From a virus (Duplodnaviria > Caudoviricetes), in IMG/VR virus record IMGVR_UViG_3300042914_002678: DNA of 64,000 nt; one strand, 5' to 3'. Position 1 is the first letter of the stretch. Every line of letters starts with the position of its first letter. The notes beneath the pieces are model-generated. The model saw only the letters and a program-made list of their open reading frames with translations, did not search any database and was not told the origin of the DNA. The position numbers were made by a program, and so were the translations under genes. Below, piece by piece: positions 10,739-54,295 of the stretch.

Positions 10739-10897
10739 ATGAAACCAACTCCCAAACAGTCTCAAGAAATTTATAAAAGTTACGAAAAAGTAGTTGAACA
10801 TCTTATTAGCGAAGGATATGCAGATAGTAAAGAATCTGCAGATATCATTATTAACGGTATGAGTGAAGAATGGTTTAACTTAATTGTAAAAGAATGA
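10739..10897 (+). CDS. 52-aa stand-alone EGYA...MSEEW module protein (missing from the ORF track)
   Basis: Read by hand: MKPTPKQSQEIYKSYEKVVEHLISEGYADSKESADIIINGMSEEWFNLIVKE; upstream TAAATA; ATGA overlap with the next gene. Confidence 0.8.
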   Translation: MKPTPKQSQEIYKSYEKVVEHLISEGYADSKESADIIINGMSEEWFNLIVKE

Positions 10898-11118
10898 AAA
10901 ATTTTAAGCAATTTTGTGAGCAGGCATTTCATCCAGACTTAGTGAATAAATTAAGTGATCCAAAAGTGCAAAAAAATCTTCAAAGCACTATAATAAAACC
11001 TGGTCAAAAATTTGCCTCTGGTCCACCACCAATTGGACAAAATAACAAAAAATCTTCATCTTCTACTGATAAAACTAAAAAGTTTCTTGGAAGAATAGTT
11101 AGCAACGCTCCATATTAA
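10894..11118 (+). CDS. Small basic protein with a capsid-targeting-like N-terminus (candidate internal head protein)
   Basis: MKNFKQFCEQA resembles the T4 internal-protein CTS MKTYQEFIAE. Confidence 0.6.
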   Translation: MKNFKQFCEQAFHPDLVNKLSDPKVQKNLQSTIIKPGQKFASGPPPIGQNNKKSSSSTDKTKKFLGRIVSNAPY

Positions 11119-11124
11119 ATTATT

Positions 11125-11664
11125 ATGCCATTTCCCAATCAAATTAGCAATAGAAATTTTTTATCTCCAATAGGATTTAAATTTAATATTGCAAAGAATA
11201 GAAAAATTGATTTTTTTTCAAATAAAGCTAAAATTCCTGGATTAACTTTAGGTATTGCAAATCAAGGAACTCCATTTAAAAGAATAGATGTTCCTGGAGA
11301 TGTTATTGAATATGATGATTTTATTTTATCATTCATAGTTGATGAAAATTTAGAAAATTACATGGCAATTCATAATTGGATTACTGGATTGGGATTTCCT
11401 GAAAATTTTGATCAATATAAAAATCTAGTTACAAATGATGATGGAATTGGTGACGAAAAATTGCAATTTAGTGACGGTTCTTTGGCAATTTTAAATAGCA
11501 ATTATCGTGAAGTAGCACAAATTAGGTTTAAAGATTTATTTCCATATTATATAACTTCAATTGATTTTGATGCTACAGTTAATGATATTCAATACTTTAC
11601 AGCAGAGGTTAGTTTCAAGTATACTGTTTATAGTATTGTTGATGCAAACGGAAATCCTCTATGA
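11125..11664 (+). CDS. gp3: Tail completion / tube terminator protein
   Basis: NRNFLSPIGFKF, FIVDENLENY, LQFSDGSL; synteny gp23-gp3-uvsY. Confidence 0.88.
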   Translation: MPFPNQISNRNFLSPIGFKFNIAKNRKIDFFSNKAKIPGLTLGIANQGTPFKRIDVPGDVIEYDDFILSFIVDENLENYMAIHNWITGLGFPENFDQYKNLVTNDDGIGDEKLQFSDGSLAILNSNYREVAQIRFKDLFPYYITSIDFDATVNDIQYFTAEVSFKYTVYSIVDANGNPL

Positions 11665-12092
11665 ATCTTGATCAAATTCAGGACATGTGGCAGAGAGATT
11701 CTGTTATAGATCCTGATAATTTACACGATGAATCTTTAAAAATTCCACAACTACATTCTAAGTATTACACAATTTATAATACAATTACTCTTCTTCGTGA
11801 AAAAGCAAGAGAAACGTACAACAGAGTCAAGTTAGAACGCTACAACTACTACACTGGAAAGGCACCTGCAGAGGTTTATGTAGAAGAACCATTTCCCTAT
11901 AAAGTTAGAGAAAAAGACGCCTTACAGAGGCATATGGACGCAGATGAGAAACTTTCTAAAATAGAAATGAAAATCCGATATTATGATATTATGTTAAAAT
12001 TTCTTGAGGAGGTCATTCGTATGATTTCTAACCGAACTTATCAAATTAAGAATAGTATAGAGTTTTTAAAATTTACCGCAGGATACAATTGA
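11661..12092 (+). CDS. uvsY: Recombination mediator UvsY
   Basis: SLKIPQLHSKY, RTYQIKNSIEFLKF; synteny with uvsW. Confidence 0.92.
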   Translation: MNLDQIQDMWQRDSVIDPDNLHDESLKIPQLHSKYYTIYNTITLLREKARETYNRVKLERYNYYTGKAPAEVYVEEPFPYKVREKDALQRHMDADEKLSKIEMKIRYYDIMLKFLEEVIRMISNRTYQIKNSIEFLKFTAGYN

Positions 12093-12122
12093 GGCAGAAA
12101 TGCCTCTTTTTTATTATAAATA
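12091..12122 (+). terminator. Terminator fused to a T4 late promoter (TATAAATA 12115-12122)
   Basis: gaggca-GAAA-tgcctc, T-run, then tataaata. Confidence 0.8.
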
Positions 12123-12137
12123 CTTTGGGATGGAGAT

Positions 12138-12371
12138 ATGTTTATGGCATTCATATACAAAATAACCAACAATATAAACGGAAAATTGAAATAGAAGTTG
12201 AGGGTATAAAGTTTAAAAGTATTAATGAAGCAGCACGATGGGGCAGTAGATAAATACTCTATAGGAAGGAACACCGCAATAAGATATATTAAAGAAGGTC
12301 GTTCATTTTCCAATAAAAAACAATTGAACTATAGTTATAATGGAACATACAAAGCGACAAAATATCTCTAA
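12138..12371 (+). pseudogene. Internally deleted, frameshifted GIY-YIG homing endonuclease remnant
   Basis: MAFIYKITNNINGK (GIY-YIG start) stops at 12192-12194; another frame gives IEIEVEGIKFKSINEAARW (NUMOD1-like), and a third continues to a stop near 12371. Confidence 0.75.
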
Positions 12372-13833
12372 TGGGCATATTATAATTCAAAAGAAAAATG
12401 AGGTTTATTTAACTATTCAAGCAGAACCTCATATCTATTATGAATTAAGGGACGCATTTCAATTTGAAGTTCCAAACGCAAAGTTTGCTCCTGCTTATAA
12501 AAATAAATGGTGGGATGGTCGCATATATTTGTTTAATGTGGATACAAGAGAAATTTATATTGGTCTTTTAGATCGAATTATTAGATTTTGCGAAAATCAT
12601 AGTTATACCTATGAGTTTGTAAATAATAAATTCTATGGTCTTCCTTTTGAAATTAATGATTTCATATCAAAGGAAGGTGTCAAAGATTATATGACTTCTA
12701 TTTGCAAGTATGCTCCCCGCGATTACCAAGTTGAGGGAGTATACGACGCTTTAAGACATAATAGAAAGTTGTTGATATCTCCAACTGCTTCTGGAAAGTC
12801 GTTGATGATATACTCGATTGTGAGATATTACGTTGAGAAAGGACAAAATACTCTGATAGTCGTTCCGACGACATCCCTTGTAGAGCAGATGTATAAAGAC
12901 TTTGCAGATTATGGGTGGGATGTTGGTTCATACTGCCACAAGATATATGCAGGTAAAGAAAGGGAAACAGACTCTCAGGTGATTATCACTACCTGGCAAT
13001 CAATCTACAAACTTCCTCGTCAATATTTCTCAAGATTTAATGTGGTCGTTGGAGATGAAGCACACCAGTTTAAATCAAAGTCATTAGTATCTATAATGAC
13101 AAAACTTTCTGACGCAAAGTATCGTTTTGGATTTACAGGAACTCTTGATGGTACTCAAACACATAAATGGGTTTTAGAAGGTTTATTTGGTCCTTCTTAT
13201 AAAATTATTAGAACAGAAGAACTGATGCAAAAGGGTCATGTTGCTAAACTAGACATTAACATTCTTCTATTGAAACACCCACCGAATAAGTTTGAAAACT
13301 TTGAAGAAGAAGTTCAATATATTATTAATCATGAAAAAAGAAATAAATTTATTAAAAATCTTGCATTAGATCTTAAAGGCAATACTTTGATTCTCTTTGC
13401 TAGAGTAGAAGGTCATGGGCAACCTTTGTACGAACTCATAAATAAGAGTATCAATGAAGATCGTCATGTCTTCTTTGTTCATGGTGGCGTAGATACTGAA
13501 AATCGTGAAAAAGTTAGAGAAATTACTGAAAAAGAGAACAATGCAATCATTGTTGCTTCATATGGAACTTTCAGTACAGGAATTAACATTAAAAATTTGC
13601 ATAACGTTATCTTTGCTTCACCAAGTAAATCAAGAATCCGCAATCTTCAATCGATTGGAAGAGTATTAAGAAAGAGCGATAACAAAGCAAAAGCAACTCT
13701 ATATGACATTGCCGATGATATCAGTTATAAATCAAGAAAAAATTATACACTCAACCATTTAATTGAAAGAATTAAAGTTTATAATGAAGAAAATTTTAAT
13801 TACGATATTGTAAATATACCGATTAAAAACTAA
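12340..13833 (+). CDS. uvsW: UvsW RNA-DNA/DNA helicase
   Basis: SPTASGKS, GDEAH, TGT, SRIRNLQSIGRVLR; the start position is uncertain. Confidence 0.96.
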   Translation: MEHTKRQNISNGHIIIQKKNEVYLTIQAEPHIYYELRDAFQFEVPNAKFAPAYKNKWWDGRIYLFNVDTREIYIGLLDRIIRFCENHSYTYEFVNNKFYGLPFEINDFISKEGVKDYMTSICKYAPRDYQVEGVYDALRHNRKLLISPTASGKSLMIYSIVRYYVEKGQNTLIVVPTTSLVEQMYKDFADYGWDVGSYCHKIYAGKERETDSQVIITTWQSIYKLPRQYFSRFNVVVGDEAHQFKSKSLVSIMTKLSDAKYRFGFTGTLDGTQTHKWVLEGLFGPSYKIIRTEELMQKGHVAKLDINILLLKHPPNKFENFEEEVQYIINHEKRNKFIKNLALDLKGNTLILFARVEGHGQPLYELINKSINEDRHVFFVHGGVDTENREKVREITEKENNAIIVASYGTFSTGINIKNLHNVIFASPSKSRIRNLQSIGRVLRKSDNKAKATLYDIADDISYKSRKNYTLNHLIERIKVYNEENFNYDIVNIPIKN

Positions 13834-14240
13834 TGGGAGATGAATTTTACGCAATTATAAAATTAGTTTCTGGTGAAGAAGTATTTTCTCAAGTGTGCAT
13901 TGATGAAAATGAAGGAGACCCTGTAGTCGTATTATCAAGTCCAGTAATTATGAAGTCTGTTCAAAATTTGAACGGAATACTTATAAAAGTTAAACCATGG
14001 ATAGACTTATCCGATGATGATTTCTTTATTATAAAACCTGATAAGATAATTACAATGACAGAAACTAAAAATAAAAATTTAATACGCCTATATGAAAATT
14101 ATATTAATGATGAAAATGTAGATATATTTAATTCAAGTGATTCTGAGAGTGGAAAAGTAAATCTTTCAAATAGAATGGGATATATCTCTTCTGTTAAAGA
14201 AGCAAGGGAAGTATTGGAAAAGATCTTTAAACATCTTTAA
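13833..14240 (+). CDS. Conserved cyanophage hypothetical protein (Sm-like fold plausible)
   Basis: FYAIIKLVSGEEVF...KVKPWI; conserved position between uvsW and gp55. Confidence 0.7.
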   Translation: MGDEFYAIIKLVSGEEVFSQVCIDENEGDPVVVLSSPVIMKSVQNLNGILIKVKPWIDLSDDDFFIIKPDKIITMTETKNKNLIRLYENYINDENVDIFNSSDSESGKVNLSNRMGYISSVKEAREVLEKIFKHL

Positions 14241-14298
14241 GATACTTAAACTCTGATCTTCAACCGGGACAAAGGTAGTCTACTGGCATTTGGCGTTC

Positions 14299-14327
14299 TT
14301 GTCAAGCTCAACTAATAATGCTATAAT
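14299..14327 (+). promoter_or_regulatory. Sigma70-type promoter upstream of gp55
   Basis: TTGTCA-N17-TATAAT with an extended -10 TG. Confidence 0.7.
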
Positions 14328-14367
14328 AAATTTAACTTATAAAATAAATTTATTACAATTAAATATT

Positions 14368-14883
14368 ATGACAAAAAAGAAATCAGAGCATTATGTAAAC
14401 AATAAAGAACTGCTTGAAGCACTAATTGTTTATAGATCAAAAGTTGAAGCAGACTTTTTAAAAAGAAATGATAGAAAACCATTAAGGGAAGATAGAGCAA
14501 AACATTGGGATGGAAAACCACCTATCCCAAATTATCTTGGTGAATGTTTTTTAAAGATTGCAACTCATTTATCATACAAACCAAACTTTGTCAATTATAT
14601 GTTCCGTGAGGATATGATTTCTGACGGTATTGAAAATTGTGTTCAATATATTCATAATTTCGATCCAGAGAAGTCTAAGAATCCATTTGCTTATTTCACT
14701 CAGATTATTCACTACGCATTTCTGAGGAGAATTCAAAAAGAGAAGAAGCAACTAGATATCAAAACCAAGATTATCGAACGCACAGGGTTTGATGAGGTTA
14801 TGATGGTTGATGACAGCTTGCTTTCTGGGCACAGTTCGGAGTATAATTCCATTAAAGACGCCATTCAGTATCGTAATAAGTGA
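14368..14883 (+). CDS. gp55: Late transcription sigma factor
   Basis: HYVNNKELL, YMFREDMISDGIENC, NPFAYFTQII; ATG 14368 preferred over the track start. Confidence 0.96.
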   Translation: MTKKKSEHYVNNKELLEALIVYRSKVEADFLKRNDRKPLREDRAKHWDGKPPIPNYLGECFLKIATHLSYKPNFVNYMFREDMISDGIENCVQYIHNFDPEKSKNPFAYFTQIIHYAFLRRIQKEKKQLDIKTKIIERTGFDEVMMVDDSLLSGHSSEYNSIKDAIQYRNK

Positions 14884-14940
14884 CCTTTTCTAACTCCTAA
14901 ATGTTATAAATAATTATATACTTTGGAGTTAGAAATAGAT

Positions 14941-15576
14941 ATGACTAAACCAAAATACACGCCAGAAGAAAGAAAAAAAATAATGGCGGAAAATCTATTG
15001 AAAAATAAAGAAAGGGCAAAATTAAAAGGATATACTCAAAAAAGTTCTGCTCGGGAGAAAGCAATTGAGGAAGGTAAAAAAACTTATATTGGATCAGTTG
15101 CTTGTAAACATTGTGGCAGTTATGAAAAGTATGTTAGCAGTTATAATTGCACTCCCTGTGCAGTTAAAAAGGGACTTGAAAAATTGAATAATGATGAGTT
15201 AATGAAACCTTATAGGACGAAAGAAAAGAAACAACAATATTGTGAAAATAATACAGAATTAGTTAATTCTATCAAAAGAAAATATGCTAAATCTGAAAGA
15301 GGTAAAGCAGTAAGTTGTGAAAAACAAAGAAGAAGACATGCTAGATTGAAACAAGGTATTCCAATTGAAATTACTGAAAATGAATTGAGAGAAATACAAG
15401 AAATATATCAAGAAGCACAACACTTGACTTTTACCACTGGAGTGCAGTATGATGTAGACCATATCATTTCGTTGTTTGAGGGTGGACTACATCACCCAGA
15501 TAATCTCCAAATCATTACTCATGAAGAGCATCTTATGAAAACTGCAAAAGAAAATAGTAGGAGGCAGCAAAAGTGA
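14941..15576 (+). mobile_element. Free-standing HNH homing endonuclease
   Basis: CxxC pairs, YDVDHIISLFEGGLHHPDNLQII; inserted between gp55 and gp47 with its own late promoter. Confidence 0.85.
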
Positions 15577-16607
15577 AGGTGGGTTTAATTTGTGACACCC
15601 ATTATGGGTGTAAAAAGGGTTCTAAGTATATTCATGATTATTTCGAACTCTTTTACAAGAATGTATTTTTTCCTGCCCTTGAAGAAAACAATGTAGAGGC
15701 AGTCATTCATATGGGTGATGCTTTTGATAGTCGCAAGTCAATTGATTATCAAAGTCTTGAGTGGTCAAAAAGAGTTGTGTTTGACCCTCTTAAAAAGTAT
15801 GATGTCCATATGGTTATAGGTAATCATGATACTTATTATAAAAATACCAATAGTGTAAATTCACCAGAACTTCTTCTTCAGACTTATCCCAATATTAAAA
15901 CTTATAGTGATCCTACAGAAATTAATATTGGTGGACTGGACATTTTATTAATACCTTGGATCAATCAAGAGAATGAAACAAAAACTCTAAAAATGATTGG
16001 AGAATCCAAGAGTAAATGTGCTATGGGACATCTTGAGTTTCAGGGATTTAGAGTTAATCGTCAACTAGTGATGGAACATGGATTGGATTCAACTATTTTT
16101 AAAAACTTCACAAAAGTATTTTCTGGTCATTACCACACTCGTTCTGATAATGGACGCATTTTCTATTTGGGTAATCCTTATGAAATGTACTGGACAGATG
16201 TAAATGATACTCGTGGGTTTCATATTTTTGATACTGAAACACTAGAACATACTCCAATTAATAATCCTTATAAATTATTTTATAACATTTATTATGAGGA
16301 TACTCCATATCAAATATTTGATGCCACAGAGTATAAAAATAAAATTGTAAAGGTAATTGTTCGTAAAAAATCTAAACCAAAAGATTTTGAAAAGTTTATT
16401 GATAAACTTTATAGCACTGGAGTTCAAGAGTTAAAAATTATTGAGAATTTTGAAATTCAAGAAAGTGAAGATTTTAAAGTAGATGAAGACGAAAACACAT
16501 TATCAATATTAAATCGTTATATTGATGATTCTGAATTTGATCTTGATAAAAATGTTATAAAAAATATTTTTCAAGATCTTTACCAACAAGCATCGCAAGT
16601 AGAGTAA
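15573..16607 (+). CDS. gp47: Recombination endonuclease subunit (Mre11/SbcD-like)
   Basis: DTHYG, HMGDAFD, GNHD, SGHYH phosphoesterase motifs. Confidence 0.96.
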   Translation: MKVGLICDTHYGCKKGSKYIHDYFELFYKNVFFPALEENNVEAVIHMGDAFDSRKSIDYQSLEWSKRVVFDPLKKYDVHMVIGNHDTYYKNTNSVNSPELLLQTYPNIKTYSDPTEINIGGLDILLIPWINQENETKTLKMIGESKSKCAMGHLEFQGFRVNRQLVMEHGLDSTIFKNFTKVFSGHYHTRSDNGRIFYLGNPYEMYWTDVNDTRGFHIFDTETLEHTPINNPYKLFYNIYYEDTPYQIFDATEYKNKIVKVIVRKKSKPKDFEKFIDKLYSTGVQELKIIENFEIQESEDFKVDEDENTLSILNRYIDDSEFDLDKNVIKNIFQDLYQQASQVE

Positions 16608-16608
16608 A

Positions 16609-16878
16609 ATGTTTCTTCTCACTCTTAAAGATAAAAAAGACGATGGAGCATATGCTGTTCAAGATCAGTATGGGCATAAAGTTTTGTTTCTTTTTGAAGA
16701 AGAAGACGATGCGACAAGATACGCTTTAATGCTTGAAGATCAAGAAGATCAAGAAATGGATGTTGTTGAAGTTGATGATGAACTTGCTATAAAAACTTGT
16801 AAATTATACAATTACAGATATACTGTAATTACTCCCGATGATATTGTAATTCCTCCCAAAAATGTTGATATTTCATAA
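16609..16878 (+). CDS. DUF3110-like protein (family shared with cyanobacteria)
   Basis: VLFLFEEEDDATRYALMLEDQ motif; family recalled from memory. Confidence 0.6.
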   Translation: MFLLTLKDKKDDGAYAVQDQYGHKVLFLFEEEDDATRYALMLEDQEDQEMDVVEVDDELAIKTCKLYNYRYTVITPDDIVIPPKNVDIS

Positions 16879-18589: not shown

Positions 18590-18730
18590 ATGCAAGTACC
18601 TAATCGCTACCATCACTCTAAAAAGGAGCAGAAGCGGAAACTGAAACCGCAAGCACTCCGACAAGCAAAGGCACGTCGCCAAGCACTCAAGAAGCACCTT
18701 AAGGGTGCTTCTTTTTTTATAAATATCTAA
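18590..18730 (+). CDS. Small very basic protein (46 aa) that runs through a terminator
   Basis: Read by hand: MQVPNRYHHSKKEQKRKLKPQALRQAKARRQALKKHLKGASFFINI. Confidence 0.6.
   Translation: MQVPNRYHHSKKEQKRKLKPQALRQAKARRQALKKHLKGASFFINI
18691..18725 (+). terminator. Terminator fused to a late promoter (TATAAATA 18718-18725)
   Basis: gaagcacc-ttaag-ggtgcttc, T7, ataaata. Confidence 0.8.
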
Positions 18731-18740: not shown

Positions 18741-18959
18741 ATGAAAACGTTTCAAGAATTTCAAACTGAGAGTAAATCTCAAGAATTTAAAGATAGGTTG
18801 GAAAAATTGAAAAAAAGAAGTGCTGCTACAGATGCTGAAGCACAAAAAACGGCGTCTCAAGCCAGATCAGATTTTGATAGATTATCTACATCGGTTGAAA
18901 AATATAAAAAAACAGTTAGTACGGATAGAAAGGCAAATCCTCATGCGGATGAGAACTGA
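18741..18959 (+). CDS. Candidate internal head protein with a CTS-like N-terminus
   Basis: MKTFQEFQTES, close to the T4 IP CTS MKTYQEFIAE; late promoter directly upstream. Confidence 0.7.
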   Translation: MKTFQEFQTESKSQEFKDRLEKLKKRSAATDAEAQKTASQARSDFDRLSTSVEKYKKTVSTDRKANPHADEN

Positions 18960-18999
18960 CTTTAAATATAAATAACTAAAAAGTTTTTTTTATAAAAAA

Positions 19000-19998
19000 A
19001 TGAAAGCACAACAGATGCAGTCTTTGTTTGAGGCATATCAAAACATATATGTCCGAGAAGAAGTACAAGAAGAATTTTCGGAAGAAGTAGAAATTGCTGC
19101 TCAATATTTTTATGAAATGGGTTTAAATGAGGATGGAGTTGATATTCTTATTGAAGAACTTGGTGAAGAAGAATTTGCAAACTTTGTTTCAGATATTGCT
19201 GAAGAGTATGTTTTAACCGAAGCAAGAGCAGGTGGTGCTAGAATTGAACCTGTGACTGCAAAAGGACAAAAGTTCAAGTCTGGTAAACCAACTGGCAAAT
19301 CTCTTGAAAGACTTCGTGCTCAAAAGGCAGCAAGAAGAGATGCGGAAGAAAAATCATCTGCAACAAAACCATCTGGAATGAAGGCATCACTTCAAAGACA
19401 ATCTGCAGTTGCTGCAGCAGCAAAAAAACAACCTAAAAAACCAGGTGTATTAGATCGTGTTGCTGGTGCAATTAATAGAGGAATTGCAAGACATAATGCT
19501 GCTATGAATGTTGCAAAAGAAACTGGAAAAACTATCAAAAAAGCAGCAGGAAAAGTTGGTGGAGTTGCTCTTGAAGTTGGTAAAGGGGCATCGGGAACTG
19601 CCAGACTTGCTGGGCATGTTGCAAGAAAAGGACTAAATGATGAGTATATTATAGGATATCTGATTGATGAAGGGTATGCTGAAACAACAGAAGCAGCAGA
19701 AGCAATTATGGTGAATATGAGTGAAGAATGGAGAGAAGATATTGTTGAGGCAGCAAAGGATCAATCAAATAAGCAAATTGAAAGAGGTGTAAAGACAACT
19801 TATAAGGCAGGAAATGTTCTTGACAATCAACATCAAGGTAGGAGTCGTGGTTTATCCCGACTTTCTGCAGTTGAAAGAGAAGAAAAAACTAAAAGAATGA
19901 GAGGTCGTCTAAAGAGTCGTAGAGATGATTTATTTGGAGAGCGTAACAGACGTGAAGATGAAGCAAGAGCAGAAATGAAGAAAAAATACGGTCTGTAA
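19000..19998 (+). CDS. Modular acidic/basic protein of the EGYA-module family
   Basis: SLFEAYQNIY N-terminus, YLIDEGYAETTEAAEAIMVNMSEEW; TATAAATA 18967-18974. Confidence 0.8.
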   Translation: MKAQQMQSLFEAYQNIYVREEVQEEFSEEVEIAAQYFYEMGLNEDGVDILIEELGEEEFANFVSDIAEEYVLTEARAGGARIEPVTAKGQKFKSGKPTGKSLERLRAQKAARRDAEEKSSATKPSGMKASLQRQSAVAAAAKKQPKKPGVLDRVAGAINRGIARHNAAMNVAKETGKTIKKAAGKVGGVALEVGKGASGTARLAGHVARKGLNDEYIIGYLIDEGYAETTEAAEAIMVNMSEEWREDIVEAAKDQSNKQIERGVKTTYKAGNVLDNQHQGRSRGLSRLSAVEREEKTKRMRGRLKSRRDDLFGERNRREDEARAEMKKKYGL

Positions 19999-20040: not shown

Positions 20041-20080
20041 ATTTTTTTATAAATATTAAAAAAAGTTTTTATAAAAAAAA

Positions 20081-21148
20081 ATGAATTCAAAAGAATATAA
20101 AAATATATTGGAAGCATACCAAAGTATTTACGAGCAGATTGGAATTCCTATTCCTCCTGGAAAAACTGCCAAGGATGTTTTAACCCCTTTAATTAAATCT
20201 CATGGTGGTGGTAAAGTTGTTGAACCTAAAAAACCAACATTGCAAAATGCACATTATCAGTTTGAAGATGGTGAAGAGTTAACTGAAAATCCTTTATCAA
20301 CATTAGATAGAATTGGAAGATCTGCAGCTCAAACTGTTGGTAGTGAGATTGGTAGGAGACAGGGACAGAAAACTGAAATTCCTGGTGGGGGGGTAATAGG
20401 TGGTTTAGTTGGTAGTAATAAAGGTGGACAGATGTATGATAAAGCGACAGCACCATTGAGGAAAATTCCTGGATTCAACAAAGGGGGAACAGTTAAATCT
20501 GAAGATGTTGAAAATGATATCTTTAACTGTCTTGTAGAATATTTGATTTCTGAAGGATATGCTGATAATGAAAACAGCGCCTCAGTAATTATCTGCAATA
20601 TGGGTGAAACTTGGAGAACTAGTGTTCTTGAAGAATTGATTGTTGAAAATGCTTTGCAGGATGTTGGAAGAAATATTGGCAATGCTGCAAAGATGTTTAG
20701 AATGATGACTGGTATTGAAAAAATCCCTCAAAAAGCACCTAGTGGACCTGCTAATTTGACTAAAATTGCTACACAAGGACCTTCAAAGCAAACTCCTCCT
20801 AAACAAACATTTAAAATTGGTACACCACCCAAACCAAATCAAACAGGTCAATATAATTTAATGAGAACTGTTCAATCTAATACTTCATTAAGACCCAAAA
20901 ATCCAGGTATTTCAATTCCTGGAAGATTGGGTGCTGCAGCTGCTGGATTACAGGCATATAATACTGGAGATTCAACACTTAAGTCTGCTTTGAAAAGAGG
21001 TGATTATAAACCACAACAAGGTCCAAAAAATCCAGACCAGGGATTGAATAAAGCACAATCTTTTGATAAAGCTTTTAAACAAGCTAGATCTTCAGGAGAA
21101 AAAGAATTTACCTGGAACAATAAAAAATATAATACAAAAATTAAATAA
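20081..21148 (+). CDS. Modular protein of the EGYA-module family
   Basis: NILEAYQSIY, LQNAHY, YLISEGYADNENSASVIICNMGETW; TATAAATA 20048-20055. Confidence 0.8.
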   Translation: MNSKEYKNILEAYQSIYEQIGIPIPPGKTAKDVLTPLIKSHGGGKVVEPKKPTLQNAHYQFEDGEELTENPLSTLDRIGRSAAQTVGSEIGRRQGQKTEIPGGGVIGGLVGSNKGGQMYDKATAPLRKIPGFNKGGTVKSEDVENDIFNCLVEYLISEGYADNENSASVIICNMGETWRTSVLEELIVENALQDVGRNIGNAAKMFRMMTGIEKIPQKAPSGPANLTKIATQGPSKQTPPKQTFKIGTPPKPNQTGQYNLMRTVQSNTSLRPKNPGISIPGRLGAAAAGLQAYNTGDSTLKSALKRGDYKPQQGPKNPDQGLNKAQSFDKAFKQARSSGEKEFTWNNKKYNTKIK

Positions 21149-21171: not shown

Positions 21172-21804
21172 ATGGAAGCAGGAAAAATTATAGATTTGAT
21201 GGAGTCTTATGCATCCATCTATACCAATATTTTCGAATCCCACTTCAAGGTTGGTGATGAAGTTGTCTGTAAGGCAAGTGGAATGGAAGGTGAAATCGTA
21301 AAGGTCGATCCAGAAGGTAAGGGTAAATATTATACCGTCAAGCGTGAAGATGGTAAAACAATGAAGTATGCTCCTGACGAGTTAAAACTTGATAAGGAGG
21401 AAGAAAAAGGTGAAAAGGATGAAGAAGGTGCAAGTAAAGAAAAGGAAGGCGAGTTTCACGACAAGTTAGATAAAATGGTTCATAAAACTTTTGGTAAAAG
21501 ACCAGAAGAAAAGAAAATGAAGGAAGACTTTGATATTTTTGACACGATTCTTGAGCACCTAGTTGCTGAAGGTTATGCTGATACAAATGAGGCAGCTCTT
21601 GCTATTATGGCGAATATGAGTGAAGATTGGAGAAACGATATTCTTGAAGAAACAAAAAGAACTGAATATCTCCAAAAAAAGTTTAATAAAGAAAACGAAA
21701 GAAAATCTGGTTCTGCTCTTAAGCATATTCCTGGAAAACAAAATACTGGACAGGCATTACAAAAGGCTAGAGAATCTGAAGGACATATGCGTGGTGAGCG
21801 TTGA
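21172..21804 (+). CDS. Modular protein of the EGYA-module family with an SH3/Tudor-like cargo
   Basis: DLMESYASIY, FKVGDEVVCKASGMEGEIVKV..., HLVAEGYADTNEAALAIMANMSEDW. Confidence 0.8.
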   Translation: MEAGKIIDLMESYASIYTNIFESHFKVGDEVVCKASGMEGEIVKVDPEGKGKYYTVKREDGKTMKYAPDELKLDKEEEKGEKDEEGASKEKEGEFHDKLDKMVHKTFGKRPEEKKMKEDFDIFDTILEHLVAEGYADTNEAALAIMANMSEDWRNDILEETKRTEYLQKKFNKENERKSGSALKHIPGKQNTGQALQKARESEGHMRGER

Positions 21805-43235: not shown

Positions 43236-43466
43236 ATGAACTCTATTATTTTAGATATTATCAAAACATTTGAGAGTAAATCAAAAAATACAAACTCTAG
43301 ATATAAAGACTTTTTATTATATGTTAATGATACTTTTGAAGATAAAATTAATTCTTGTAGGATAGAAAAGTCAAAGAATAAATATAAAAAGATCAAATTA
43401 AATGTTCTGAGATACATAGCAGTAAACGAAAAGGAAATAATCTCTAAAATCTGTAAAAATAAGTAA
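43236..43466 (+). CDS. Hypothetical protein
   Basis: Coupled ORF. Confidence 0.6.
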   Translation: MNSIILDIIKTFESKSKNTNSRYKDFLLYVNDTFEDKINSCRIEKSKNKYKKIKLNVLRYIAVNEKEIISKICKNK

Positions 43467-44770
43467 TGAAAAAATTTTTTCAATTTTTATCCGAAGCACA
43501 AGAATCTAAAGCGATTCAACAGGCTAAACGTATGGGTTTGGATACAGACCAACATGGTGGTTGGTATAAAAATGGAGAATTCGTAGCAAAAACGGTAAAT
43601 GGCGAATTAAAGTTTTATAACAAACGCCAGAAAGTAGGAGAGAAAGATTCTCCACAATCAGAAAAAGAAAAAAATCTTTCTTATTTTTCAACCGATTCGT
43701 CTAACTCTCAAGTTCAGCAACAATCTACTCAGGGATCCTCTCCAGAACAAACAACAGTTCCTCAAGAGACAACTCCAACAAATTATCTTCCTGTAGAAAA
43801 AACAAAAGGAACTCTAACCATTGCATACGGAAGATTTAATCCTCCTCATGCTGGTCATCTTCAATTAATGGATACTGCTGCTAGTTCGGCAGAATCTGAG
43901 GGTAGTGATTATGTAATTGTTCCTTCAAGAACTCAGGACAAAAATAAAGATCCATTGGATGTGGATACAAAAGTATCAATAATGAGAAAAATGTTTCCAC
44001 AGCATAGTGAGAGAATAGTAAATGATTCAAATACAAGTACTATTTTTGATGTTCTTAAAAAAGCACATAATGACGGATATGCAAATGTAAGAATTATTGG
44101 TGGACCTAATAGAGTAAAAGAATTTGAAAAATTGACTAATGGTTATAATGGTAATCTTTATCAATTTGATACTATAGAAGTAATGCCAATTGGTGAAAAG
44201 GACGCAGATTCTGATAAAGCTGAAGACTTTTCTGCTTCAAGAATGAGACTTGCTGCTGCAGAAAATGACTTTAAAACTTTTCGCTCTGGAATGCCTGCAG
44301 AAATGAGACCAAAAGAAATTCGTGATATTTTTAATACTGTTCGTCAATCAATGGGAATTCAAGACGAGGTTGTTGAAGTTTGGAAAATAGCACCAAAACT
44401 TGACTGGAAAAATCTTAGAGAAAATTATATTCATGAAAGAATATATCAAGTAGGTGAATTAGTTGAAAATTTAAATACGGGATTGGTTGGAAAAATTATT
44501 CGCAGAGGAACTAATTATCTTATTTGTGTAACTGAAGATAACATTATGTTTAAGTCTTGGATTAAAGATGTAAAGGAATCTTATCAAGAAAAATCTGTAA
44601 ATAGTAAAATGAGACTTCCTGGAAAACCAAATACATTAGTTGGTACAGTTGGATATTTAAAATACGTCGCACAACAAACACCTGGTTCAGAACTTGATAA
44701 AGAAAATTTAGCTTTTGGTCAAAAGAATTTTGGATTGAATTTCATAAATAAGTATAGGAAAAGTAAGTAA
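43466..44770 (+). CDS. Cytidylyltransferase-superfamily (HxGH) nucleotidyltransferase
   Basis: YGRFNPPHAGH, SASRMR; N-terminus MKKFFQFLSEA. Confidence 0.88.
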   Translation: MKKFFQFLSEAQESKAIQQAKRMGLDTDQHGGWYKNGEFVAKTVNGELKFYNKRQKVGEKDSPQSEKEKNLSYFSTDSSNSQVQQQSTQGSSPEQTTVPQETTPTNYLPVEKTKGTLTIAYGRFNPPHAGHLQLMDTAASSAESEGSDYVIVPSRTQDKNKDPLDVDTKVSIMRKMFPQHSERIVNDSNTSTIFDVLKKAHNDGYANVRIIGGPNRVKEFEKLTNGYNGNLYQFDTIEVMPIGEKDADSDKAEDFSASRMRLAAAENDFKTFRSGMPAEMRPKEIRDIFNTVRQSMGIQDEVVEVWKIAPKLDWKNLRENYIHERIYQVGELVENLNTGLVGKIIRRGTNYLICVTEDNIMFKSWIKDVKESYQEKSVNSKMRLPGKPNTLVGTVGYLKYVAQQTPGSELDKENLAFGQKNFGLNFINKYRKSK

Positions 44771-48118: not shown

Positions 48119-48130
48119 GCACCCTTCATA

Positions 48131-49102
48131 ATGGATTTTGTTGATTCTAAGTACATTGGATTAGTATCTTCGCGTCTACAAAAATTTAAAAGGGTCAAAT
48201 CGGATCTCTACAATTTTCGTTGTCCTATTTGTGGCGATTCTCAAAAAAACAAAAATAAGACAAGAGGTTATATTTACACCGTAAAAAATAATACCAATTT
48301 CAAGTGTCATAACTGTGGTGCCAGTTTATCATTCAATAACTTTCTCAAAGAAATAGATCTGAATCTTCATAAACAATATACTTTGGAGAAGTTTAAAGAA
48401 GGACATACTGGCAAAAATTTTGTGGTTGAAGAACCGAAGTTTGAGTTTACAAAACCATCTTTTAAAAAAAAGTTAGATCTTCCCAAAGCATCTGAGAATC
48501 CTATTTCTAAACAATATCTAGAAAATAGAAAACTTAATCCTGAAAAGTTTTATTTTGCTCACAAATTTAAAGAGTGGACAAATACTCAAAAGATTACATT
48601 CAGTACTGTTGGTAGAGATGAGAGTCGCATTATTATACCAATGTATGATACTGAAAATAACTTGATTGGTTTTCAGGGAAGAGCACTCGGTCCTAACCCT
48701 GTTAAATATATTACCGTGATGCTTTCTGATGATGCACCAAAAATTTATGGTCTTGATCAAGTGGATTCTTCGAAACCCATTTACATCGTTGAAGGACCCT
48801 TCGACTCCACGTTTGTACAAAATGCTGTTGCTATGTGTGGGTCCGACGTTGATATTGGGTCGTTTGGTTGGGGCGATTATATTTACGTTTTTGATAACGA
48901 ACCACGTAATCGAGAAATCGTCATCAGAATCGAAAAAACCATCAATAGAGGTGAAAAGGTAATTATTTGGCCAACAACCATCGAGCAAAAAGATATTAAT
49001 GATATGGTGCTCGCTGGACTTAATGTTATGAATGTGTTAAAATCAAATACATACACAGGTTTAGAAGCAAAAATTAAGTTTAACAACTGGAAAAAAATAT
49101 GA
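48131..49102 (+). CDS. gp61: DNA primase
   Basis: FRCPICGDS, FKCHNCG, IVEGPFDS, FDNEPRN, KDINDM. Confidence 0.96.
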   Translation: MDFVDSKYIGLVSSRLQKFKRVKSDLYNFRCPICGDSQKNKNKTRGYIYTVKNNTNFKCHNCGASLSFNNFLKEIDLNLHKQYTLEKFKEGHTGKNFVVEEPKFEFTKPSFKKKLDLPKASENPISKQYLENRKLNPEKFYFAHKFKEWTNTQKITFSTVGRDESRIIIPMYDTENNLIGFQGRALGPNPVKYITVMLSDDAPKIYGLDQVDSSKPIYIVEGPFDSTFVQNAVAMCGSDVDIGSFGWGDYIYVFDNEPRNREIVIRIEKTINRGEKVIIWPTTIEQKDINDMVLAGLNVMNVLKSNTYTGLEAKIKFNNWKKI

Positions 49103-51399
49103 GCAACGGAACGAAAGTCGTCAAAAGGAACGGTAAAACTGAACCTCTTGATTTAAATAAACTTCATATCATGGTAGAAGAGGCGTGTAAGGACCTCGCA
49201 AATGTTTCTGCATCACAGGTTGAGATGCAGTCTGGTATTCAATTTTATGACGGCATTACAACCGCAGAGATTCAAGAGATTCTGATTCGTTCTGCTTCTG
49301 ACCTGATTGATCTGGAGCATCCCAATTATCAGTTCGTTGCCGCCCGTCTTTTGTTGTTTGCCCTTCGCAAGCAACTGTTTGGTGGAATGTATGAATGCCC
49401 TACCGTAAAGAAGCACGTAGAGCGTTGTGTGGGTAGGGGTGTATATGACTCAGAAATTATCTCATTGTATTCTGATGAAGAGTTTGATAAACTTCAATCG
49501 TTTATTGATCATAGTCGTGACTATCTGTTCACTTATGCAGGGTTACGTCAAGTCGTTGATAAGTACCTAGTGCAAGACAGAAGCACTGGAGTACTTTACG
49601 AAACTCCACAGTTTATGTACCTTTTGATTGCAGCGACTATCTTCTCCAAATATCCAAAGGAAACACGTTTAGACTACGTTAAAAAGTACTATGACGCAAT
49701 CTCAAGACACCGAATCAACATTCCAACCCCCATCATGGCGGGAGTGCGAACACCACTTAGACAATATGCTAGTTGTGTTCTTGTTGACGTTGATGACACC
49801 CTCGATAGTATCTTTACTAGCGATATGGCTATTGGCAGATATGTTGCACAAAGGGCGGGTATCGGTATCAACGCAGGTAGAATCCGTGGCATCAACGCTA
49901 AAATCAGAGGCGGAGAAGTACAGCATACGGGCGTTGTCCCTTTCCTCAAGAAGTTTGAAGCAACTGTCCGATGCTGCACTCAGAATGGCATCAGAGGTGG
50001 ATCAGCAACTGTCCACTTTCCAATCTGGCACCAAGAGATAGAAGATATCCTAGTATTAAAAAATAACAAAGGAACCGAAGATAACCGTGTTCGTAAGTTA
50101 GACTACAGTATTCAAATCTCCAAACTATTCTATGAACGATTCATTCAAAACGGAGAAGTCTCTCTCTTCTCTCCACACGACGTTCCTGGTCTGTATGATG
50201 CTTTTGGGACTGATAGATTTGACGATTTGTATGTTGATGCAGAACGAAATGAGTCTATTCCTAGAAAAACTATCGGAGCTCAAGAACTCTTTCTGGACCT
50301 CCTGAAAGAACGTGCGGAAACTGGTCGTATTTACATTATGAATATTGACCACTGTAATTCCCACTCTTCCTTCTTGGATAAGGTTGAGATGAGTAATCTT
50401 TGTCAAGAAATTACTCTGCCAACCAAACCACTTCAACATATTGATGATACTGATGGGGAAATTGCTCTCTGTATTCTTAGTGCTATTAACGTTGGAAAAA
50501 TTAGGGATCACGAAGATCTTGAAGTTCTTTGCGATCTTGCTGTTAGGAGTCTTGATGAACTCATTGATTTTCAAGGATATCCCGTCAAAGCAGCAGAAAT
50601 CGCCACGAGGGCACGTCGTTCACTTGGGGTAGGTTTTATTGGTCTGGCACACTATCTCGCCAAGCACGGGGAGCATTATGATGATCCTGGTGCATGGAAA
50701 CTGGTTCATGATCTGACTGAGGCATTTCAATATTATCTGATTCAAGCAACTGTTGATCTTGCCAAAGAAAAGGGTGCATGTGAATATTCACATAGAACCA
50801 AATACGGTAATGGCATTCTCCCTATAGATACTTACAAGAGAGATGTGGACGAAATTGTACCTAACGAACTTAAGTATGATTGGGAATCGCTTCGTGAGCG
50901 GGTCAAGCAGTACGGAGTACGGAACAGCACGTTGTCCGCACAGATGCCTTCGGAGAGCAGTTCCGTTGTGTCAAATGCAACCAACGGAATCGAACCACCT
51001 CGCGGATACTTGTCCATTAAGAAGTCGAAGAAGGGTCCACTCAAGCAGATTGTTCCACAGTATCAAACGCTTAAGAACAATTATACGCTTCTGTGGGATA
51101 TGCCTAGCAATCGTGGGTATATTCATATTGTTGCTGTTATGCAAAAATTCTTCGATCAAGCGATTTCTGGAAACTGGTCCTATAATCCAGAAAATTACCC
51201 AGATAATGAAGTTCCTGTTAGTGTAATGGCACACGATATGCTTGAAACTTATCGTCTGGGACACAAAACAGCATATTATCAAAATACTTATGACCATAAA
51301 ACTGATGAAGTAGTTGAAGAACCAAAACAAGAACTACAATCTCTTCTTGATGATATTATGAGTTCTGACGAAGAAAGTTGTGAAAGTTGTACAATCTAA
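49099..51399 (+). CDS. nrdA: Ribonucleotide reductase class Ia, alpha subunit
   Basis: ATP cone, TPIMAG, ASCVL, SNLCQEI, AQMPSESSS, C-terminal CESC. Confidence 0.98.
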   Translation: MSNGTKVVKRNGKTEPLDLNKLHIMVEEACKDLANVSASQVEMQSGIQFYDGITTAEIQEILIRSASDLIDLEHPNYQFVAARLLLFALRKQLFGGMYECPTVKKHVERCVGRGVYDSEIISLYSDEEFDKLQSFIDHSRDYLFTYAGLRQVVDKYLVQDRSTGVLYETPQFMYLLIAATIFSKYPKETRLDYVKKYYDAISRHRINIPTPIMAGVRTPLRQYASCVLVDVDDTLDSIFTSDMAIGRYVAQRAGIGINAGRIRGINAKIRGGEVQHTGVVPFLKKFEATVRCCTQNGIRGGSATVHFPIWHQEIEDILVLKNNKGTEDNRVRKLDYSIQISKLFYERFIQNGEVSLFSPHDVPGLYDAFGTDRFDDLYVDAERNESIPRKTIGAQELFLDLLKERAETGRIYIMNIDHCNSHSSFLDKVEMSNLCQEITLPTKPLQHIDDTDGEIALCILSAINVGKIRDHEDLEVLCDLAVRSLDELIDFQGYPVKAAEIATRARRSLGVGFIGLAHYLAKHGEHYDDPGAWKLVHDLTEAFQYYLIQATVDLAKEKGACEYSHRTKYGNGILPIDTYKRDVDEIVPNELKYDWESLRERVKQYGVRNSTLSAQMPSESSSVVSNATNGIEPPRGYLSIKKSKKGPLKQIVPQYQTLKNNYTLLWDMPSNRGYIHIVAVMQKFFDQAISGNWSYNPENYPDNEVPVSVMAHDMLETYRLGHKTAYYQNTYDHKTDEVVEEPKQELQSLLDDIMSSDEESCESCTI

Positions 51400-51444
51400 G
51401 TTTATTAAATATAACAGTGTTGGTTAGTTTAGAAGAGAAAAATT

Positions 51445-52626
51445 ATGACTTTTAGTTTTAAAACAAGTTTAGAGGATAGAAAAGTGATCAATCAAATGAC
51501 AGTTTTCAACTCCGAAGAAGTTGATACTAAGAAACAACCAATGTTTTTTGGTCAACCGCTTGGAATTCAGAGATATGATTCTTATAAGTATCCAATCTTT
51601 GATAAACTCACAACACAGCAATTAGGATATTTCTGGAGACCTGAGGAGGTCTCCCTCCAAAAGGATCGTGGAGATTATCAATCCCTTCGCCCCGAACAAA
51701 AACACATTTTTACCAGCAACCTGAAGTATCAGGTGATGCTGGACTCTGTTCAGGGTCGCGGACCTGGTATGGCATTTGCACCATACTGTTCACTTCCCGA
51801 ACTGGAGGCGTGTATGAAGGTTTGGGAGTTTATGGAGATGATCCACTCCCGCTCATACACCTATATTATCAAGAATGTCTATTCAGATCCATCTGAAGTT
51901 TTTGATACGATTTTAAAAGAGGATCGTATTATGGAACGTGCTGTCAGTGTAACTGAGGCATATAATGACTTCATTAATAGTGCTCAACATTATGGGACTT
52001 CTGAACTTTGGAAACATGCCCAAGAACAAGTTCCCTACGCCCAGGCAGAAAGGTATGAACTCAAACGAAAACTTTTCAGAGCAGTTGCAAACGTTAATAT
52101 TCTTGAAGGTATTCGCTTTTATGTCAGTTTCGCTTGCAGTTTTGCATTTGGCGAACTCAAACTTATGGAAGGAAGTGCAAAAATCATCTCACTAATTGCT
52201 AGAGATGAAAATCAGCACCTTGTCATCACTCAAAACATTCTTAACAAGTGGAAGGAAGGTGATGATCCTGATATGAAGAAAATCTCACAAGAAGAAGAGC
52301 AATGGGTCTACAAGACCTTTGAGAACGCTGTCAATCAAGAAAAACTTTGGGCAGAGTATCTGTTCAAGGATGGATCTATGATTGGTTTGAATGACAAACT
52401 GTTACAGCAGTATGTTGAATGGATTGCTAATCGTAGAATGAAGGCGATTGGTCTTCGCCCACTTTATGATATTCCTGCTAAGAATAATCCACTTCCTTGG
52501 ACTGAGCATTGGATTTCTTCTAAGGGACTTCAAGTGGCACCCCAGGAAACGGAAGTTGAATCATACATAGTAGGTGGGATTAAACAAGATGTTACCAAAG
52601 ATACTTTCTCAGGATTCCAATTATGA
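51445..52626 (+). CDS. nrdB: Ribonucleotide reductase class Ia, beta subunit
   Basis: FWRPEEV, EMIHSRSY, EGIRFY, RDENQH, APQETE. Confidence 0.98.
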   Translation: MTFSFKTSLEDRKVINQMTVFNSEEVDTKKQPMFFGQPLGIQRYDSYKYPIFDKLTTQQLGYFWRPEEVSLQKDRGDYQSLRPEQKHIFTSNLKYQVMLDSVQGRGPGMAFAPYCSLPELEACMKVWEFMEMIHSRSYTYIIKNVYSDPSEVFDTILKEDRIMERAVSVTEAYNDFINSAQHYGTSELWKHAQEQVPYAQAERYELKRKLFRAVANVNILEGIRFYVSFACSFAFGELKLMEGSAKIISLIARDENQHLVITQNILNKWKEGDDPDMKKISQEEEQWVYKTFENAVNQEKLWAEYLFKDGSMIGLNDKLLQQYVEWIANRRMKAIGLRPLYDIPAKNNPLPWTEHWISSKGLQVAPQETEVESYIVGGIKQDVTKDTFSGFQL

Positions 52627-52750
52627 TGAATGGGTGGAACAAGATATCATAAACGCATATAAGAATGCAGCAGAAGCAGATGAATTTCTGTTTGGTGATT
52701 ATGACTATGAGACAGAATGGTTAGGTAAAAAAACTGATGATGTAAACTGA
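52589..52750 (+). CDS. Small acidic protein (53 aa) overlapping the nrdB end
   Basis: Read by hand: MLPKILSQDSNYDEWVEQDIINAYKNAAEADEFLFGDYDY... Confidence 0.55.
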   Translation: MLPKILSQDSNYDEWVEQDIINAYKNAAEADEFLFGDYDYETEWLGKKTDDVN

Positions 52751-52780
52751 GGGTCTTCGGACCCTCTTTTTTTATAAATA
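52749..52780 (+). terminator. UUCG terminator fused to a late promoter (TATAAATA 52773-52780)
   Basis: gagggtc-TTCG-gaccctc, T7, ataaata. Confidence 0.9.
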
Positions 52781-52810
52781 TTCGTAGGAATCTCTATAAG
52801 TATAAAGAAA

Positions 52811-54295
52811 ATGCTCCCATCTGATATCAAAGATTTGTACAAATCATATCAATCAATTTATCAGCAAGAAGACGATGATATTTCTTCTGAAATGATTGAA
52901 GAGATTGTTGAAGAACTAGTAGAAGAATGTTTAGAGTTTGGATATACTCTCGATGAAGCAACTAATGCCATTCAAGAAGCGGCAGAAATCTATTTTGATG
53001 CCGAAGAACTTGAAGAAGCAAAAGTAACTTACGGTAGCGATACTGAGAGTCCAGAAGAAAGAACTGCAAGAGCAAAAGAAAGACTTGGTGGAAGAAAAGC
53101 AACAGCACGTAAGGCAGCGGTAAAAGGCGCTGTAGAGCGTGTTAAAACAAAGGCAAAGGGCATTAAGGCAGGTGTTGAAATTGCAGGTTCAATCGCCAAG
53201 GATGAGGCAAGAAGAGCAGGACGTGGCGCTCTTCATGCAGTTGGCAAAGCTGCTAGTGCTGTTGCAAGTGCTCCTGGCAAGGCAGTTACAGCGGTCACAG
53301 ACGCTGCTAGAGCGAAGAAGGCAGAAGTTAAGCAGGGTGTTAAGAGCCTGCTTGGAAGGGGTCTCCGTAAGGCAGCAGGCGCTGCTGGTGTAGTTGCCCA
53401 GAAGGCACGTAAAGCAGGTGCTGCTGCTGGTAGAGCTGCTGAAAGACTTGGTGAATCTTCAATTAATGAAGAGCCATCTCTTGGTAATATAAAAGCAACG
53501 ATGGCGACACAGAGATCTGCACAAAATGCCGCAGGGATGAGAGGACCTGAATTAACTCATGGTGCAAAACCAGCATCTACTGGATCTCCAAAAGCAGCAG
53601 GATCTGCAACATCAGGTTCTGCTGTAACTCAACCAAGAAGCAGAGAGTTCTCTCATGGCACTAAACCATTAAAATCAGTTGTAAAGGGTGGGCTTACAAT
53701 GTCTTATGAACCAGAAGGTGAAAATGTTGATGAAAATGTTGGTGGGTCAGTAAAAATGAAACCAGGTTCTGGACTGGGTGGCGGAACTCCAGTTTATCCA
53801 AAAGGACAAGAACCAAAAGCAACTGGCGCCAAATTGCCAAGTCTTCAAAATGCACATTATGAATATAGTGAAAATGATATCTATGATTTAGTTATGGAAT
53901 ACTTGCTTGATACTGAGCAGGCTGAAACAATTTCCGAAGCTCAATATATTATGTCACAAATGGATGTCGAAATGATTACTAATATCGTAGAAGAAACAAC
54001 GACTGAAAAACTTGCAAGAAGAGCAAGTGAAAAAGCAGAAGAACCAGGGGCAAAAACAACTTATAAGCCTCAAGGTCCTGGATTCAAAAATCCAAGATCA
54101 AAAGCATCAATCATGAATCAAATTGCAGGAAGAGCAAAATCTAGAACAGAGCACGGTGTAGATTCACAATATGGTGAGGGAACTCCTCAACATAGTGAGC
54201 AACCAAGACGTGGTGGAAGGGCTGGTAGAGGGTCTAAAACTGATAGACCAGGAACTGCAAATATGCCAAATCCAAATAGAAAACCAAAAAATTGA
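52811..54295 (+). CDS. Large modular protein of the acidic-module family
   Basis: DLYKSYQSIY, Ala/Lys-rich cargo, MSYEPEGE, LQNAHY, divergent module YLLDTEQAETISEAQYIMSQM. Confidence 0.8.
   Translation: MLPSDIKDLYKSYQSIYQQEDDDISSEMIEEIVEELVEECLEFGYTLDEATNAIQEAAEIYFDAEELEEAKVTYGSDTESPEERTARAKERLGGRKATARKAAVKGAVERVKTKAKGIKAGVEIAGSIAKDEARRAGRGALHAVGKAASAVASAPGKAVTAVTDAARAKKAEVKQGVKSLLGRGLRKAAGAAGVVAQKARKAGAAAGRAAERLGESSINEEPSLGNIKATMATQRSAQNAAGMRGPELTHGAKPASTGSPKAAGSATSGSAVTQPRSREFSHGTKPLKSVVKGGLTMSYEPEGENVDENVGGSVKMKPGSGLGGGTPVYPKGQEPKATGAKLPSLQNAHYEYSENDIYDLVMEYLLDTEQAETISEAQYIMSQMDVEMITNIVEETTTEKLARRASEKAEEPGAKTTYKPQGPGFKNPRSKASIMNQIAGRAKSRTEHGVDSQYGEGTPQHSEQPRRGGRAGRGSKTDRPGTANMPNPNRKPKN

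Follow-up and report, generated by a model that had tools for sequence, protein, structure and literature searches.

In bacteriophage T4 the prohead protease gp21 cuts after L/I-X-E, and the capsid targeting sequence (CTS) consists of the first ten residues of internal protein III (IPIII), with targeting assigned to positions 4 and 7 and processing to positions 8 and 10; the T4 internal proteins co-purify with gp22 (PMC9026906). According to that review, which cites Repoila et al. (1994), the hypervariable internal protein (IP) loci of T-even phages encode different basic proteins with CTS-like starts. In the giant phages phiKZ and SPN3US, head and inner-body/ejection proteins are processed after Glu by gp21-like proteases (PMC5694885; PMC9026906). 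Here we describe five related genes, starting at positions 10739, 19000, 20081, 21172, and 52811, in a 64,000-nucleotide stretch of viral DNA (the window; IMG/VR record IMGVR_UViG_3300042914_002678) from an uncultured lake T4-like cyanomyophage (Kyanoviridae; nearest isolates S-SRM01 and B3/B23; 35% G+C). Few viruses of lakes and oceans are as abundant as the T4-like cyanophages, and our literature search found no description of internal head proteins or capsid-targeting signals in them. We put at about even odds (0.5) the reading that the five genes encode gp21-processed head-internal proteins, a variant of the T4 internal-protein system.

The likeness to T4 IPI, IPII, IPIII, and Alt has several sides: the genes are late and belong to a phage that has its own homologues of gp21, gp22, and gp23, (L/I)-x-Glu comes after an N-terminal leader, the predicted mature parts are largely basic, unrelated cargo stands behind a shared tag, and one homologue of the window family has been found in virions. 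The window family differs in that its leader spans 17 to 22 residues and reads L-x-E-A-Y-x-x-V-Y rather than MKTYQEFIAE, in that one to three acidic modules, folded and internal, are added, each closing with an I-x-E, and in that its proteins are multisegment and polyprotein-like, with processing and packaging predicted from sequence. As at the T-even IP loci, a constant address element appears to be combined with rapidly exchanged payloads, a pattern interpreted there as an arms-race repertoire. In the window family, however, the constant element is mainly the internal module, with the exchange point at its C-terminal end, and the family is far larger (4137 clusters) and dispersed over several conserved genome positions instead of one locus. 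With phiKZ and SPN3US it would share paralogous head-internal families whose members a diverged T4-type prohead protease cuts behind a short x-x-Glu. No sequence relationship was seen, no search aimed at it having been made; the giant-phage proteins are larger, and their processing has been shown by mass spectrometry (MS), whereas that of the window family is predicted.

All five open reading frames (ORFs) stand as the preliminary description gave them (Table 1). A typical member comprises a leader, a variable cargo, one to three highly conserved acidic three-helix modules, and an unrelated, mostly basic tail. In some members the cargo is basic, A/K/G-rich, and disordered; in others it is a small fold, as in gene 21172, whose SH3/Tudor-like barrel has HspQ as its best PDB match (5ycq; E 9e-4). 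The module regions are strongly acidic and the segments between them net basic, which bears out the earlier characterization of those segments. A Pfam search with the five proteins gave no match. The PHROG matches are all to families of unknown function: gene 19000 matches phrog_3477 (3.7e-23) and gene 21172 matches phrog_3708 (1.1e-9) and phrog_22522 (7e-7), while gene 20081 matches PHROG profiles weakly and genes 10739 and 52811 match none. Gene 52811 is syntenic with S-SRM01 QPX48234-48236; a tblastn search with its product against isolated phages found no match.

Table 1. Features of the window and related targeting-type starts. Arrows mark candidate cleavage points; rows without coordinates are proteins of other phages.
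Feature	Coordinates	Strand	Remarks
P0001, 52-aa module-only protein	10739-10897	+	directly after gp23; module E 1e-19; leader weak, E 0.019
P0002	19000-19998	+	leader, acidic module B (YFYEMGLNEDG..., ending LTE↓A), basic A/K/G-rich block, EGYAD module (19633-19749, ending IVE↓A), basic tail
P0003	20081-21148	+	leader ending IYE↓Q, Gly/Pro/Lys-rich block, EGYAD module (20516-20632), long basic tail
P0004	21172-21804	+	leader ending IFE↓S, SH3/Tudor-like barrel (residues ~30-73), acidic linker, EGYAD module (21532-21648), short basic tail
P0005	52811-54295	+	after nrdB; leader, acidic N-domain (ending LEE↓A), long A/K/G-rich basic block, divergent EGYAD-type module (53876-53992, ending IVE↓E), basic tail
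Late promoter of ORF 18741	18718-18725	+	consensus match to TATAAATA
Late promoters of 19000, 20081, and 52811	18967-18974; 20048-20055; 52773-52780	+	identical TATAAATA boxes
gp21-type prohead core serine protease	7312-7962	+	presumed processing enzyme; Pfam Peptidase_S77, 3.9e-36
gp22-type capsid assembly scaffold	8004-9209	+	Pfam T4_CASP, 7e-80
gp23 major capsid protein	9257-10663	+	Pfam Gp23, 2e-149
74-aa basic ORF	10894-11118	+	start MKNFKQFCEQ (T4 CTS-like); coupled to P0001 by ATGA overlap
72-aa basic ORF	18741-18959	+	start MKTFQEFQTE (T4 CTS-like); just before P0002
Cytidylyltransferase/NMNAT-like enzyme	43466-44770	+	start MKKFFQFLSE↓A, T4-type targeting sequence look-alike; no EGYAD module
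S-SCSM1 ORF91, cytidylyltransferase orthologue			MKSFLQFLKE↓A; MS-detected in virions
S-CREM2 gp154, cytidylyltransferase orthologue			MKNFSSFLTE↓A; MS-detected in virions
S-SM1 T4-GC190, cytidylyltransferase orthologue			MKKFSAFLNE↓A; MS-detected in virions
Syn9, cytidylyltransferase orthologue			MKKFSAFLSE↓A
S-CRM01, cytidylyltransferase orthologue			MKLFNQFFKE↓A

The element common to the five genes is a module of about 40 residues, which we call EGYAD and which had been put at about 35 residues. A hidden Markov model (HMM) built from the five copies was run against the six-frame ORFs of the whole 98.6-kb contig and returned exactly those five (E 1e-23 to 1e-27; next match E 0.15), and a 63-sequence profile of the module found the same copies and nothing more. 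AlphaFold2 (AF2) modeled the module as a compact three-helix bundle with a predicted local distance difference test score (pLDDT) of 88.8. A PDB fold search with this model gave no significant match, the only ones, at E>1 and to a helical portion of RNA polymerase subunit beta', being taken as chance, and in BFVD the model matched cyanomyophage proteins only. The proteins are charge-biased and partly low in complexity, so their shared motifs might in principle be a compositional or chance likeness among acidic and basic sequences. We give this explanation practically no credence: the module E-values run from 1e-18 to 1e-30 with no other match in 98.6 kb, there are thousands of homologues with near-invariant columns, the fold is predicted with confidence, and the profile searches already refute such an origin.

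The module ends at a candidate protease joint. Among 289 distinct copies, position 42 is Ile in 280 and position 44 is Glu in 250, and column entropy is at most ~2 bits within the module, ~3.0 at the residue after Glu44 (most commonly E, A, or G), and 3.8 to 4.0 beyond. The last conserved residues are thus I-x-E, and unrelated sequence follows directly, so that the [ILV]xE ends noted earlier are real, conserved, and placed exactly at the conservation boundary. Two further acidic modules, found in genes 19000 and 52811 and their relatives, end in L-T-E↓A and Y-[ILVM]-x-E↓ and are likewise followed by variable basic sequence. A common origin of the EGYAD, YFYEMGL..LTE, and WVNSLIEEGYDL modules was considered, and they are treated as unrelated (hhalign probabilities of 0.4 to 4.7%). 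The suggestion that the modules are scaffold-like did not hold up, as there is no detectable similarity to gp22, which scores E 17 with the module profile and E 8.7 with the leader profile. Neither the idea that the leader mimics the gp22 C terminus (IMEAYLQTL; E 8.7, not significant) nor the idea that the module or linker copies a gp22 segment (MKEEFDI...; E 17, no profile support) was retained.

The leader is a 17-residue element in fixed register (Met1 ... Leu9-x-Glu11-Ala12-Tyr13-x-x-[V/I]16-Tyr17), with (L/I/V)-x-Glu no more than a few residues farther on. Its consensus is M-x-x-[KQ]-[EQ]-x-x-x-L-x-E-A-Y-x-x-[VI]-Y, and in 147 of 175 distinct N termini the Met stands exactly 12 residues before the invariant Tyr. 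A leader profile built mostly from outside sequences matched genes 20081, 21172, 19000, and 52811 (E 5.5e-8 to 2.5e-4, strongest for 20081) and nothing else significantly. The N-terminal helix earlier ascribed to all five genes therefore holds as a leader for four of them; in 10739 the corresponding stretch is helix 1 of the module. Across 50%-identity representatives, the leader is present in 110 of 142, with Tyr at residue 13 in 92 of these 110. An [LIVMF]xE motif occurs within 16 residues after the leader in 104 of the 110, whereas 1000 shuffles averaged 61 and never exceeded 80. The leader-end candidates in the window genes are VRE, IYE, and IFE, with 52811 less clean. In ~115 orthologues of gene 21172, the junction [IL]-[ST]-E↓S-H-F ahead of the SH3-like domain is nearly invariant, and AF2 models the 21172 product least confidently (pLDDT <50) at residues 19 to 22, the leader/cargo junction between leader helix and barrel. 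When five complete genomes were searched, the leader profile matched module-bearing ORFs only, and we therefore regard the leader as family-specific and not as a general address tag.

Judging from their promoters, the five genes are late-transcribed. TAAATA lies within 40 nt upstream of every one of them, as the preliminary description had stated. Among the five, 19000, 20081, and 52811 alone have the complete T4 late consensus, TATAAATA, which lies 31 to 38 nt upstream of them and also of the small ORF 18741; genes 10739 and 21172 carry weaker variants. The consensus occurs 15 times on the plus strand and 0 times on the minus strand, and this bias makes the motif meaningful here.

As in T4-type internal-protein systems, the phage has genes for a prohead protease and a scaffold core of the T4 type. 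The gene order runs gp17, gp18, gp19, gp20, a 91-aa ORF, the gp21 protease, the gp22 scaffold, gp23, gene 10739, the 74-aa ORF (whose start at 10894 overlaps the stop of 10739), gp3, UvsY, UvsW, gp55, gp47, gp46, ORF 18741, and genes 19000, 20081, and 21172, then a vWA/CobT-like protein, with gene 52811 farther on, downstream of nrdB. Residues 50 to 55 of the window gp23 read AFLSE54↓G. T4 gp23 (521 aa; mature chain 456 aa, from a comparison of the two chains) is matured close by, at SFLTE65↓A; the two sites are offset by six residues in the HMMER alignment, in a poorly aligned stretch. This AFLSE↓G is probably the Delta-domain cleavage site, and because the window gp23 carries it near the T4 position, a T4-like specificity of the window gp21 is plausible. 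In T4, an Asp at the P1 position prevents processing.

Virion association has been observed for one homologue, as a whole-particle detection. The BFVD search led to a "virion protein" of cyanophage S-SCSM1, ORF89 (QFG06346.1), which carries both the leader (MDSKTFNSLSEAYAAVY...) and the module (HMM 2.6e-16) and which BLASTP aligns with the product of 21172 in the module (2e-9) and in the leader region (6e-4). In S-SCSM1, 45 proteins, 13 of them of unknown function, were detected by MS in CsCl-purified virions and labeled in the record (PMC9602691). ORF89 is annotated on this basis and lies within a run of such proteins, ORF89 to ORF93, that includes a CTS-bearing NMNAT (ORF91). The virion protein ORF92 resembles the products of 52811 or 19000 suggestively at best (BLASTP E 0.011 to 0.065). 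ORF93 (L007:13627-13836), a 69-aa MS-detected virion protein, has a CTS-like ...RTFKEFLEYIE at its C terminus and not at its N terminus.

These data also bear on the alternative that the five proteins are late, non-virion factors, such as assembly chaperones, nucleoid or DNA-handling proteins, or host-takeover factors, and that the S-SCSM1 detection reflects carry-over of an abundant late protein. There is one supporting proteome, and its authors caution that abundant late proteins can contaminate virion preparations (PMC9602691). Family genes have replication and recombination genes as neighbors (they follow gp46 and nrdB) and in S-CRM01 are found downstream of psbA, and the proteome of S-SCSM2R has one protein of unknown function among 23, though its genome has three module ORFs. 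Against this alternative stand the position of ORF89 inside a run of MS-detected virion proteins, the late promoters, the combined leader and cleavage-motif signatures, and the placement of 10739 and a CTS-like ORF directly after gp23. We consider it unlikely.

None of the five genes itself starts with a ten-residue CTS like MKTYQEFIAE, in which residues 4 and 7 are aromatic, residue 8 is I/L, and residue 10 is E; they have the different, longer leader instead. T4-type starts occur on other proteins of the same phage: MK-x-[FY]-x-x-[FY] begins 3 of the 1073 ATG-ORFs in the contig (10894, 18741, and 43466), compared to 0.76 expected. For reference, we verified that the N termini of T4 IPII and IPIII both read MKTYQEFIAE↓A. 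The enzyme encoded at 43466 resembles cytidylyltransferases/NMNAT-like proteins (T4-GC190) that are virion-carried in its relatives S-SM1, S-SCSM1, and S-CREM2, and the start is conserved in the orthologues listed in Table 1 and, in the same type, in ACG-2014f. Like the window family, these enzymes have an (L/F)-x-E↓A leader; unlike it, they have a short MKxFxxFLxE tag, no EGYAD module, and an enzymatic rather than a basic disordered protein. Their presence in virions indicates that nonstructural proteins are loaded in this lineage. Because MKxFxxFLxE↓A-tagged cytidylyltransferases are found in the virions of three cyanophages, T4-style head loading very probably operates in cyanomyophages, and the small basic ORFs 18741 and 10894, which abut family genes, are therefore good internal-protein candidates, with the reservation that position 8 is not I/L in either. 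S-SRM01 has MKSFQQFQED at the equivalent place after gp23. A literature search found no paper linking cyanophage cytidylyltransferase/NMNAT-like enzymes to a targeting sequence; the tag would explain the published puzzle of why such enzymes recur in cyanophage virion proteomes. In S-SRM01 we also observed MKSFSQFLEE on a 447-aa basic protein after nrdB.

The family is large and its cargo is exchanged. Among 1.84 billion representatives, the module profile matched 4137 50%-identity clusters at E<=1e-3 and 2554 at E<=1e-10, all unnamed, and the product of 21172 alone has 1596 homologues, likewise all unnamed. Members are 58 to 600 aa long, and 55 of 142 new representatives (among the 150 best matches) have two or three modules. 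In isolates, the module occurs four times each in S-SRM01, B23, and S-CRM01, three times in S-SCSM2R, twice in DSL-LC02, and once in S-SCSM1; the positions after gp46 and after nrdB are common to the window phage, S-SRM01, and B23. Among 108 proteins with the leader, SH3, and module head and a tail, the tails fall into 31 clusters, so that the swappable cargo proposed earlier is borne out, with at least 31 tail types behind one head architecture; this result rests on the tail clusters, since single linkage chained the pre-module segments into one uninformative cluster. Many heads share the tail of 19000, which turns up between two modules as well, and one segment stands ahead of the module in S-SCSM1 ORF89 and behind it in S-SCSM2R ORF205. 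Conservation of the module from phage to phage also makes it a seam for tail exchange. Nucleotide identity among the five paralogous modules is only 44 to 70%, which makes exchange within one genome unlikely; exchange between co-infecting phages is a more plausible route.

Three further observations concern the makeup of individual members. In S-CRM01 (NC_015569, 83314-83861, minus strand), just downstream of psbA, leader and module matches fall in one 124-aa frame recorded as two genes, g94 and g95, and the annotation may have divided one family member. On a related metagenomic contig (L020:1042-1453), a 77-aa ORF abuts a 58-aa module ORF at the position of 21172, a pair that looks like a split gene of the 21172 type. 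In ACG-2014f, the 943-aa hypothetical protein Syn7803C11_122 (L001:6531-9362), encoded between gp16 and gp17, contains the acidic module B of gene 19000, ending LLTE↓ARAGG and followed by a basic block; family parts therefore also occur inside the structural gene cluster of marine phages.

Taken as gp21-processed internal proteins, the family members would dock through leader and/or module in the gp22-gp21 core during prohead assembly, and the gp21-type protease would cut after the Glu of the (L/I/V)-x-E joints. The basic pieces would then remain with the DNA or be ejected into the host, and the acidic pieces would be expelled or kept as counter-ions. We infer the head-internal location, the cleavage, and the identity of the address element from the features described above. 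The preliminary interpretation is partly borne out, in the late promoters, modularity, cargo exchange, protease-type joints, and virion-associated homologue; its scaffold-like role is not supported, and its removal of the modules and DNA condensation by the basic pieces are predictions. The fixed register of the leader with its own (L/I/V)-x-E and the T4-type targeting sequence on other proteins of the phage go beyond it. A more specific proposal, which we regard as tentative and on balance doubtful, is that the EGYAD bundle is a new internal, non-N-terminal capsid-loading and processing joint that docks polyprotein-like precursors in the prohead core, is cut by gp21 at I-x-E, and forms the recombination seam at which cyanomyophages trade a large and rapidly changing repertoire of injected basic peptides and small effector domains.

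A number of points, together with the contamination caveat above, weigh against processed head-internal proteins. Cleavage and module loss are themselves predictions, (L/I/V)-x-E is short, and conserved helix ends would give a conservation boundary anyway. The product of 21172 is acidic overall. The leader differs from the T4-type CTS used by the same phage, and some family members start directly with the module, lacking a leader. No module occurs in Syn9, S-PM2, S-SM1, S-CREM1, or S-CREM2, so it is not essential to T4-like cyanophage heads, and some copies lie outside structural regions, such as S-CRM01 g93 to g95 downstream of psbA. Finally, Glu44 is no more conserved than other acidic positions of the module. 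This last point also speaks for an alternative in which the proteins are virion-borne, head-internal or otherwise, and the acidic modules are retained as folded domains instead of being cut off as tags; a retained module could be a core or capsid docking domain or an intramolecular neutralizer of the basic segments, with I-x-E simply the end of helix 3. The confidently predicted compact bundle, under strong purifying selection, would suit a binding domain as well as a tag, helix 3 continues through the proposed site in the AF2 model of the 21172 product, and module-only proteins exist (10739 and Atlas clusters of 51 to 54 aa). Retention accounts less readily for three unrelated acidic modules that all end in (L/I/V/M)-x-E with variable sequence following at once, for a leader that precedes the motif far more often than in shuffles, and for a T4-like site in the phage's own capsid protein. 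We therefore think retention improbable, though a stronger contender than the non-virion alternative.

If the five genes do encode processed internal proteins, thousands of "hypothetical" cyanophage genes would form one class whose products are delivered with the DNA, a likely reservoir of early-acting counter-defense or DNA-condensing factors. Leader and module would then be candidates for tagging foreign proteins so that cyanophage capsids take them up, a use already made of the T4 CTS.

Some features of the neighboring head-assembly genes are recorded here in their own right. The gp21 homologue starts MKLITEE, with an I-T-E motif close to its N terminus; T4 gp21 has a similar L-I-E site at residue 9 and may be auto-processed (PMC9026906). 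The 91-aa ORF (7032-7307, plus strand) occupies the interval from gp20 to gp21, which in T4 holds core genes 67 and 68; it is Ala/Val/Ser/Thr-rich and matches PHROG 19805 (unknown function) with no Pfam match. The gp22 homologue has an N-terminal extension of ~150 residues upstream of the conserved T4_CASP domain, and residues 10 to 90 of this extension contain two copies of NVV-x-KGAK-x-A-[ED]-PMQ-x-L and a long acidic run.

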